Shown: piece by piece, positions 17,358-17,568 of the stretch | How the letters are laid out: each line of letters begins with the position of its first letter | Position numbering within the stretch: position 1 is the stretch's first letter | Assembly: GCA_937936355.1 (NCBI GenBank) | Contig: CALDDM010000002.1 | Location: 17,156 to 81,155, forward strand | Reading direction: 5' to 3' | Length of the DNA stretch: 64,000 nt | Source of the DNA: Minisyncoccota bacterium | GTDB taxonomy: Bacteria > Patescibacteriota > Minisyncoccia > Moranbacterales > GCA-2747515 | Notes under the pieces: generated by a model | Databases searched by the model: none | What the model saw: only the letters and a program-made list of their open reading frames with translations | Told to the model about the DNA's origin: nothing | Position numbers and translations under genes: made by a program

Positions 17358-17484
17358 TGCTCAGGGCGGGACTTTCACATCGTCCCCGAGGGGACGATTA
17401 CAAAACCCACTGTTTCGTAAACTTCCTCTCACGGCAAACCTAGGTTTCCCGACACCTTCCTTATTTCAACTCCCTACTTCGCCG
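17358..17484 (-). mobile_element. ~125-bp structured insert 3' of tRNA-Leu(GAG) bounded by a 17-19-bp direct repeat of the tRNA 3' end; homolog of the 16791-16901 element
   Basis: gtgctcagggcgggactt at 17358-17376 and 17483-17501; internal cgggaaac-ctag-gtttgccg and acgaaac-agtgg-gttttgt hairpins with compensatory changes relative to the Met-linked copy. Confidence 0.4.
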
Positions 17485-17568
17485 TGCTCAGGGCGGGACT
17501 TGAACCCGCACGCTATAAAATAGCCTAGGCCCTCAACCTAGTGTGTATACCAATTCCACCACCTGAGC
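17485..17568 (-). tRNA. tRNA-Leu (GAG), long variable arm
   Basis: gctcagg...cctgagc acceptor, anticodon loop ttGAGgg, variable arm gctattttatagcgt, T-arm gcggg-ttcaagt-cccgc. Confidence 0.75.

Follow-up and report, generated by a model that had tools for sequence, protein, structure and literature searches.

Behind the ends of many genes of Patescibacteria (CPR), most often tRNA genes, lies a small element of ~100-170 bp without cargo, in which a conserved ~70-nt core of two hairpins stands between two arms that are both made from the end of the adjoining gene. The overall layout is an intact gene end (S1), a linker, an antisense arm (A, the reverse complement of S1), the core and a direct copy of the gene end (S2). 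The reading we favour, to which we give about an even chance, is that the family consists of small non-autonomous integrative elements, which spare the target gene by means of an att-like duplication and possibly act as folded hairpins. The family appears to be previously undescribed; no published description was found in the full-text literature, the coverage of which is incomplete, so that this absence is not proof.

The window, meaning the whole stretch of 64,000 nt that was analysed, encodes L19, NusA, trigger factor and PcrA and is therefore bacterial chromosome. It belongs to Patescibacteria (CPR), in which the best relatives of its L19 are found, these being of Moranbacteria type. A minus-strand tRNA cluster in the order Leu(GAG)-Val-Phe-Met-Gly lies just downstream of rplS, and two of the nine tRNA genes in the window carry the element. 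The parts of the two copies are as follows.

17484..17568, minus strand: tRNA-Leu(GAG), intact target gene (ARAGORN, Rfam, repeat analysis)
17484-17501, minus strand: S1 of the Leu copy, the last 18 nt of tRNA-Leu including one trailer base
17464..17473, minus strand: antisense arm A of the Leu copy, GGGAGTTGAA (read from the sequence and ortholog comparison)
17395..17463, minus strand: conserved core of the Leu copy (covariance model R1, 61.1 bits)
17432-17453, minus strand: P1 of the Leu copy, with one G-G mismatch
17400-17418, minus strand: P2 of the Leu copy, acgaaac-agtgg-gttttgt
17381..17396, minus strand: variable extra hairpin of the Leu copy, cgtcccctcggggacg, between P2 and S2
17357..17378, minus strand: T-loop-like GTGA followed by S2, Leu copy (repeat analysis)
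17357-17374, minus strand: S2 of the Leu copy, exact 18-nt duplicate of the tRNA-Leu 3' end
16901..16974, minus strand: tRNA-Met(CAT), intact target of the second copy (ARAGORN, Rfam, repeat analysis)
16899-16918, minus strand: S1 of the Met copy, a 20-nt exact repeat with 16790-16809
16891..16901, minus strand: antisense arm A of the Met copy, CAGGATTTGAA
16823..16891, minus strand: conserved core of the Met copy (covariance model R1, 77.6 bits)
16860-16881, minus strand: P1 of the Met copy
16828-16846, minus strand: P2 of the Met copy, gcgaaac-cgtgg-gtttcgc
16790..16813, minus strand: T-loop-like GTGA followed by S2, Met copy (repeat analysis)
16790-16809, minus strand: S2 of the Met copy, exact 20-nt duplicate of the tRNA-Met 3' end

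The initial annotation had described an insert behind tRNA-Leu(GAG), bounded by an 18-nt direct repeat of the 3' end of that tRNA and homologous to an insert at tRNA-Met, and both statements hold. The Leu repeat (AAGTCCCGCCCTGAGCAC, at 17484-17501 and 17357-17374 on the minus strand) is exact, and the two inserts have a 56-nt core in common with 82% identity, both being scored by model R1 (77.6 bits for Met, 61.1 bits for Leu, next best match in the window 15 bits). Motif searches of the 64-kb window gave exactly two copies, a count reached in 0 of 100 shuffles. The distance from the tRNA to its duplicated 3' end is ~109 nt at tRNA-Leu and ~89 nt at tRNA-Met. The extra hairpin cgtcccctcggggacg reported for the Leu copy is present, and hairpins are found at the equivalent place in the Leu orthologs (GTCCCCTCAGGGAC in L121, ATGCCCCAAGGCAT in L003). 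The difference in GUUU(C/G)CCG, which had been taken as compensatory, instead places the G-G mismatch in P1 of the Leu copy; in the core of this copy a GAGGAAG junction follows P1. Overlooked at the time was the reverse-complement arm 5' of each core. That of the Met copy (CAGGATTTGAA) is the perfect reverse complement of TTCAAATCCTG, present in the tRNA T-arm and in S2, and that of the Leu copy (GGGAGTTGAA) is, apart from one mismatch, the reverse complement of TTCAAGTCCC in the T-loop/T-stem; the latter is also found in the orthologs L121 and L050, with one mismatch each and at a different position in L121. Both window copies are reduced versions, with arms of only 10-11 nt.

Two side observations concern the same cluster. 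A partial, diverged duplicate of the tRNA-Leu 5' end (TCAGGTGGTG...GGTATACACAC) lies at 17625-17663 (minus strand), ~90 nt upstream of the real gene, is lacking in the close relative L121 and may be the scar of an older rearrangement or insertion on the 5' side. Sub-threshold Rfam matches to 'Plastid-ycf2 5UTR' at 16695-17568 (plus strand) coincide exactly with the antisense of the Gly, Met, Phe and Leu tRNAs, four of the five in the cluster, and were rejected as a model artefact.

Across the family, the linker after S1 often holds a terminator-like hairpin with a T run. At tRNAs, arm A corresponds to the 3' strands of acceptor and T-stem together with the T-loop and terminates in ...AATCGAAC(C). 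The core starts with GGRAAGGG and continues with the almost invariant hairpin P1 (GUCGGGAAA(A)C-loop-G(U)UUUCCCG), a nearly invariant P1-P2 junction, G(U/C)GGAGGAAGG, and P2, which has a variable distal stem and closes on AAAC-CGUGG-GUUU. A small optional hairpin may follow, commonly GCGAAGC; the Leu copy of the window and the orthologs of this copy have GUCCCC..GGGGAC instead. A T-loop-like GUGA(R)AU precedes S2, which at tRNAs usually starts in the T-loop near position 57-61, reaches the discriminator or CCA and often extends a few nt more, sometimes >20 nt into the downstream flank of the tRNA (L006 and L097, in which the repeat includes the tRNA's own downstream flank and terminator). For canonical copies the predicted fold is a long A:S2 closing stem bearing P1 and P2, with z-scores of -5 to -5.7. 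At the inner boundary A complements S1 perfectly, and precisely at this point 2-3 nt of S2 are changed relative to S1 (GTTCGAT to GTGAGAT at tRNAs; CTGCAAATGG to CTGCTGGTGG at L33, an AAA to UGG change). Because it is S2 and not A that departs from S1, the A:S2 stem contains a conserved mismatch of 2-3 nt, GUGAGAU facing AUCGAAC with tandem G.A. In one subtype of Kaiser-/Nomurabacteria type (L008, L024, L025, L078, L092) S2 is very short (~7-13 nt), being mainly the 3' strand of the acceptor and no more than part of the T stem, and the GCGAAG/GTGAG(AT) module is placed behind the tRNA and ahead of arm A, not between P2 and S2.

A search of the contigs of GTDB species genomes with the core pattern returned at least 118 matches; a covariance-model search gave 82 matches in 64 loci, including additional diverged copies. 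Among the matches listed, nearly all are in Patescibacteria MAGs of many classes (Saccharibacteria, Paceibacteria, Kaiser-, Nomura-, Berkel-, Moran-, Taylor-, Zambryski- and Falkowbacteria, and WS2). About five matches listed from other phyla lack the hairpins and were rejected as chance. True copies were also seen on contigs of MAGs labelled Bdellovibrionales or Gammaproteobacteria (L018, L022, L029, L044, L061, L085); either these labels or the binning are wrong, or the family extends beyond Patescibacteria. Rfam searches of the window and of canonical copies, at gathering thresholds and at E<=10, gave tRNA matches and sub-threshold noise only, the latter comprising matches to PhotoRC-I, tmRNA_permuted and miRNA models. 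The core pattern had 0 matches in viral contigs, and megablast against a phage collection returned only ~50 bp of tRNA; a phage origin was rejected on these grounds. Also rejected were a group I intron remnant (the tRNA-intron literature on Patescibacteria concerns anticodon-loop group I introns, which are unrelated) and translation of the insert or of a small ORF within the core (its start codon is unconserved, and the S2 fragment of L077 is out of frame with the main gene). Neither cargo nor a distant S1, as expected of larger autonomous versions, was found when whole loci were searched, and no protein gene associated with the copies was seen adjoining any of them, the neighbours being unrelated.

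The pairing claimed for the second hairpin was borne out once more copies had been collected. The difference between gcgaaac/gtttcgc and acgaaac/gttttgt belongs to a truly covarying P2 stem: among 115 members five pairs change on both sides, with 130 compensatory cells against 45 in shuffles and 0 of 500 shuffles as high, in an alignment that is biased by the search pattern. The base pairs of P2 are thus kept through compensatory change, and the exceptions on the tRNA-sense strand are G-U, not A-C. P1 is uninformative in this respect because it is invariant. All genomes are MAGs, and the apparent conservation of the core is inflated because the alignment was gathered with the core pattern. Variants of the P2 stem form subfamilies common to different genomes and targets, and copies within one genome differ.

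Both arms are specific to the target. In 78% of copies the alignment of S1 with S2 scores above the 95th percentile of the null, with a median repeat of 21 nt (range 11-70) and commonest S2 lengths of 18-23 nt. Against the 17 nt that are specific to a tRNA, S2 gave exact matches of at least 10 nt in 73% of copies for the own tRNA and in 0% for other tRNAs, which bears out the statement that the duplication of each insert matches its own tRNA; for arm A, a match of at least 8 nt was obtained in 48% (own) and 0.7% (other tRNAs). Simple duplication on insertion, as had been proposed, is insufficient to describe a copy, because the antisense arm is a second target-derived part.

The family had been introduced as tRNA-linked, and tRNAs are indeed its usual targets, but the ends of tmRNA and protein genes are occupied too. 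Of 127 cores among the matches listed, 101 have a tRNA gene on the same strand 19-174 nt upstream, and these tRNAs are of almost every identity; the orientation at tRNAs is always the same, with no case of an element at a tRNA 5' end among the 127 cores. Judged by GC skew, the element-sense strand is the G-rich strand in 84 of 118 cases, a bias that decides nothing since co-orientation with tRNA genes predicts the same. Directly after a tmRNA gene (L068, 529-1100) both arm A (GGGCGGCGGGAATCGAAC) and S2 derive from the 3' end of that gene. In L028 and L073 the element follows the L33 gene and in L094 and L115 another gene, the 3' end being the target each time, and in L040, L077 and L112 the element lies between divergent genes and duplicates the first ~55 nt, that is the 5' end, of a glycosyltransferase gene. 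No target sequence motif is common to the tRNA and protein-gene sites. At L33 (rpmG; L028 4130-4340, and the same site in L073) S2 encodes the exact C-terminal peptide of S1, even though this C-terminus differs between the genomes (WCRVHSKHKEAKK in L028, WCKAHTKHKEAKK in L073). Outside the core-proximal end of S2, the two differ at 17 positions, each of them the third of a codon (9/9 in L028, 8/8 in L073), and both copies of the L33 gene end have therefore been held to coding sense. In L115 a serine codon changes from AGC to TCA between the gene-end copies; in L094 the codon-position pattern is mixed.

Occupancy of orthologous sites was compared in the L19-Leu-Val-Phe-Met-Gly clusters of the window and of two relatives with synteny.

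Window: occupied at Leu and Met; empty at Val, Phe and Gly
L001: occupied at Val (26-nt perfect repeat); decaying at Phe and Leu; remnant at Met; empty at Gly
L003: occupied at Leu, Met and Gly; empty at Val and Phe

The empty state of the Val and Phe sites of L003 was judged solely against a distant relative. At the Met site of L001 the linker and a degenerate A arm persist, so this site is a deletion remnant and not an empty site. Scans of metagenomes for the empty alleles predicted for the window Leu site and the L003 Met site gave 0 matches, and no clean empty site or excision product was found. The S2 of tRNA-Leu in L003 has an alternative valid T-stem (ccctc), as used by the L001 tRNA. 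Other mobile genes have also entered these clusters: two HNH endonuclease ORFs and an rve transposase in L001 (6018-8459); three unknown ORFs and a GIY-YIG gene between Phe and Gly in L003 (5298-8178). The stretch of L003 from the Met element to the GIY-YIG gene (7800-7900) contains AAAACTTAGGCTGGCACG in three tandem-like copies. A second recurring motif of tRNA leaders, unrelated to the element, is a hairpin of the form CCTAAGTTTTTC...GAAAA.TTTAGG, which directly precedes tRNA-Leu and tRNA-Gly (L003 4615-4660 and 8195-8250; L001 4560-4600).

Several observations point to spread by insertion with a duplication that spares the gene. A single core recurs at numerous unrelated targets, the arms reproduce the sequence of each target down to non-functional flank, orthologous occupancy is patchy with some copies visibly decaying, P2 subfamilies are common to different genomes, and no copy has cargo. 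The coding sense kept by S2 at L33, the serine codon switch in L115 and the alternative T-stem in the S2 of L003 tRNA-Leu bear the mark of gene-end replacement of the att type. For the mobile family that had been suggested earlier, the patchy occupancy and the same core at unrelated targets speak in favour, but a clean empty site or an excised form was not found, and mobility is for this reason something that we infer. On the integrative reading, the element would enter a gene end and leave that end duplicated, and the target gene would survive because of the duplication; tRNA 3' ends would simply be the commonest target. The likely substrate would be the A:S2 hairpin with the core at its tip, as folded single-strand DNA or as RNA, on which a putative enzyme encoded elsewhere would act in trans, and by analogy the order S1-linker-A-tip-S2 could be the outcome of a single-strand exchange between the folded hairpin and the duplex target.

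Parts of this scheme have precedents. Islands that integrate at tRNA genes duplicate the tRNA 3' end at attL/attR, and integration of phage 21 and e14 duplicates the 3' end of icd. As in tRNA/tmRNA integrative elements, the direct repeats here are taken from the target gene end, run from the T-loop to or just past the 3' end and leave the gene intact; tmRNA and protein-gene ends are used as they are by these elements and by phage 21/e14, and the displaced end of the L33 gene, perhaps comparable to that of icd, differs mainly at synonymous sites. Unlike tRNA/tmRNA integrative elements, the present family is only ~100-170 bp long and has neither integrase nor cargo, one conserved core serves dozens of different targets, and there is a reverse-complement copy of the target in addition, which att sites lack. 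Folded single-strand recombination sites, namely attP(+) of CTX phage (used by XerCD) and integron attC, offer a further analogy: as in these, the stem of an imperfect hairpin mimics the target duplex and keeps certain bases unpaired, a conserved mismatch lies near the presumed crossover, and the integrated order predicted from them, S1-rest-A-tip-S2, is the order seen. The family differs from both in that it has no phage or cassette body, its stems are target-specific instead of being a fixed dif or GTTRRRY site, its tip is a 70-nt conserved two-hairpin module and no IntI was seen nearby. Like the MITE-like Rickettsia RPE, REPIN and Correia elements, the copies are small, non-autonomous, multi-copy and hairpin-forming, and their insertion is tolerated beside or within genes, including RNA genes. 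In those elements, however, the conserved part is the inverted repeat itself and the target duplication is 0 to a few bp, whereas here the stem is target-derived, the tip conserved and the duplication 11-70 nt; conserved terminal inverted repeats with a short fixed duplication were not found, the inverted repeat being different at every site.

Some points count against the integrative reading. An att model alone does not explain that A and S2 both match the new target. The strict orientation at tRNAs counts against it, as does the conservation of the core across very divergent classes, which is unusual and partly imposed by the search pattern. No recombinase encoded by the element or shown to act on it was seen among cargo or neighbours, and none is consistently linked to the copies. 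The only recombinase seen near elements is a XerC/D-like tyrosine recombinase with Phage_integrase and SAM-like N domains, encoded ~4.3 kb away from the cluster of tRNA genes (window 21822-22838, plus strand); it is a candidate by proximity only and probably represents the housekeeping Xer.

The main rival, which we regard as a possible but minority explanation, is that the element is a host-functional RNA module, read through from the upstream gene and acting in place. The A:S2 stem would imitate the acceptor/T-stem minihelix of the cognate tRNA (or the mRNA end), the purine-rich three-way junction would bind a protein or ligand, and local duplication would give rise to new copies; the module might act in 3'-end processing or in stabilisation, insulate folding, or control the invasion of the tRNA 3' half by A. 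Full-length A:S2 stems of tRNA-linked copies do reproduce the acceptor and T stem with the discriminator (plus CCA), for example in L034 and L009, as in the tRNA-like domain of tmRNA or in mascRNA; in contrast to these the T-loop is replaced by the core, the window copies pair over just 10-11 nt, and elsewhere the same layout is built from protein-gene sequence. A role as RNA would fit the P2 covariation with its G-U exceptions, the nearly invariant junctions, the good folding of canonical copies, the mismatch kept in A:S2 whereas A complements S1 perfectly, and the constant position on the same strand downstream of tRNAs. Further evidence is from the orthologous Leu(GAG) copies (window, L121, L003, L050), in which P2 and the extra hairpin are kept through compensatory changes; this indicates selection in place, fits a functional RNA more than inert inserted DNA, and is why this explanation stays a serious rival. 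It is opposed by the many copies that lie behind a terminator-like hairpin with a T run after the tRNA, by the copies upstream of an opposite-strand gene, where action of an RNA in cis makes little sense, by copies that are decaying or absent at orthologous tRNAs and by the element being present at only two of the nine window tRNAs. The exact duplication of non-functional flank (L006, L097) and the coding-preserved S2 are likewise unexpected of a structural stem.

Rather unlikely in our estimate is a new type of programmable homing module, in which the hairpin, as ssDNA or RNA, would show both ~20-nt target strands beside the two-hairpin scaffold and so guide a Patescibacteria enzyme in trans to insert the element at any gene end, the arms being re-copied for each target.

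TnpB/IscB omega-RNAs promote homing and retention of IS200/605 elements. A guide RNA of this general kind, for a nucleic-acid-guided enzyme, is doubtful here: the core would be the scaffold, A (5') or S2 (3', typically 18-23 nt) the guide, and the other arm would either cover the guide through self-complementarity or pair with the second DNA strand, the whole promoting homing or retention. The arrangement of a scaffold with ~20 nt, the S2 lengths of commonly 18-23 nt, the match of the arms to both target strands and the lack of a motif common to tRNA and protein-gene sites would suit such a guide, and CPR bacteria host other unusual guide systems, e.g. TIGR-Tas (PMC12045711). On the other hand, no associated protein gene adjoins any copy, A pairs with S2 and would block the guide, arrays are absent, and the Rfam omega-RNA and CRISPR models have no match. 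A TIGR-Tas array itself, which would be next to a Nop-domain gene, was rejected: TIGR units are of 36 nt with two 9-nt spacers in tandem arrays (PMC12045711), whereas the present copies are single, with a 70-nt core and arms that pair mutually.

The position directly 3' of tRNAs and the conserved, structured core could also suggest a self-cleaving ribozyme trimming the tRNA 3' trailer. HDV-like theta ribozymes occur downstream of phage tRNAs and resemble the element in being structured RNAs immediately 3' of tRNA genes. We consider this very improbable: there is no match to any of the Rfam 15 ribozyme families even at E<=10, nor to the theta ribozymes in sequence or structure, viral contigs gave no copies, the element often stands behind a terminator and as much as 174 nt from the tRNA, protein genes also carry it, and the duplicated arms are left unexplained.

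Retroviruses and LTR elements have a primer-binding site complementary to the 3' 18 nt of a tRNA. That the element is a retro-copy, with A as such a site and S2 as the product of a reverse transcriptase reading the tRNA primer up to the modified T-loop base, is hardly credible, although roughly the last 18-20 nt of the tRNA are represented in antisense by A and in sense by S2, and S2 usually starts in the T-loop, since S2 in the window copies the genomic trailer (CAC..., CAG...) and not the post-transcriptional CCA, and elsewhere may include the terminator, protein-gene and tmRNA targets have the identical layout, no reverse transcriptase was seen nearby, and Patescibacteria are reported to lack group II introns (PMC13011429).

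The family thus resembles att-type integration, folded-hairpin sites and MITEs separately and departs from each in its defining feature, because it has no recombinase, its stems are target-specific and conserved terminal repeats are lacking. A large part of bacterial diversity falls within Patescibacteria, whose genomes measure only ~1 Mb. In those sampled here a sizeable share of tRNA genes carries an unannotated element, two of nine in the window and 2-3 of five in three related loci. Without annotation, the distal tRNA fragments are liable to be mistaken for tRNA pseudogenes or prophage att sites, and under either of the two leading readings covariance model R1 can be used to annotate the element. 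If the element is a functional RNA, it would be among the most abundant uncharacterised structured RNAs of the phylum and tied to tRNA biology. If it is mobile, its strategy of insertion would be new, with a conserved tip and arms copied from a target gene that is never broken, and the mechanism that copies the target into both arms could interest tool makers.
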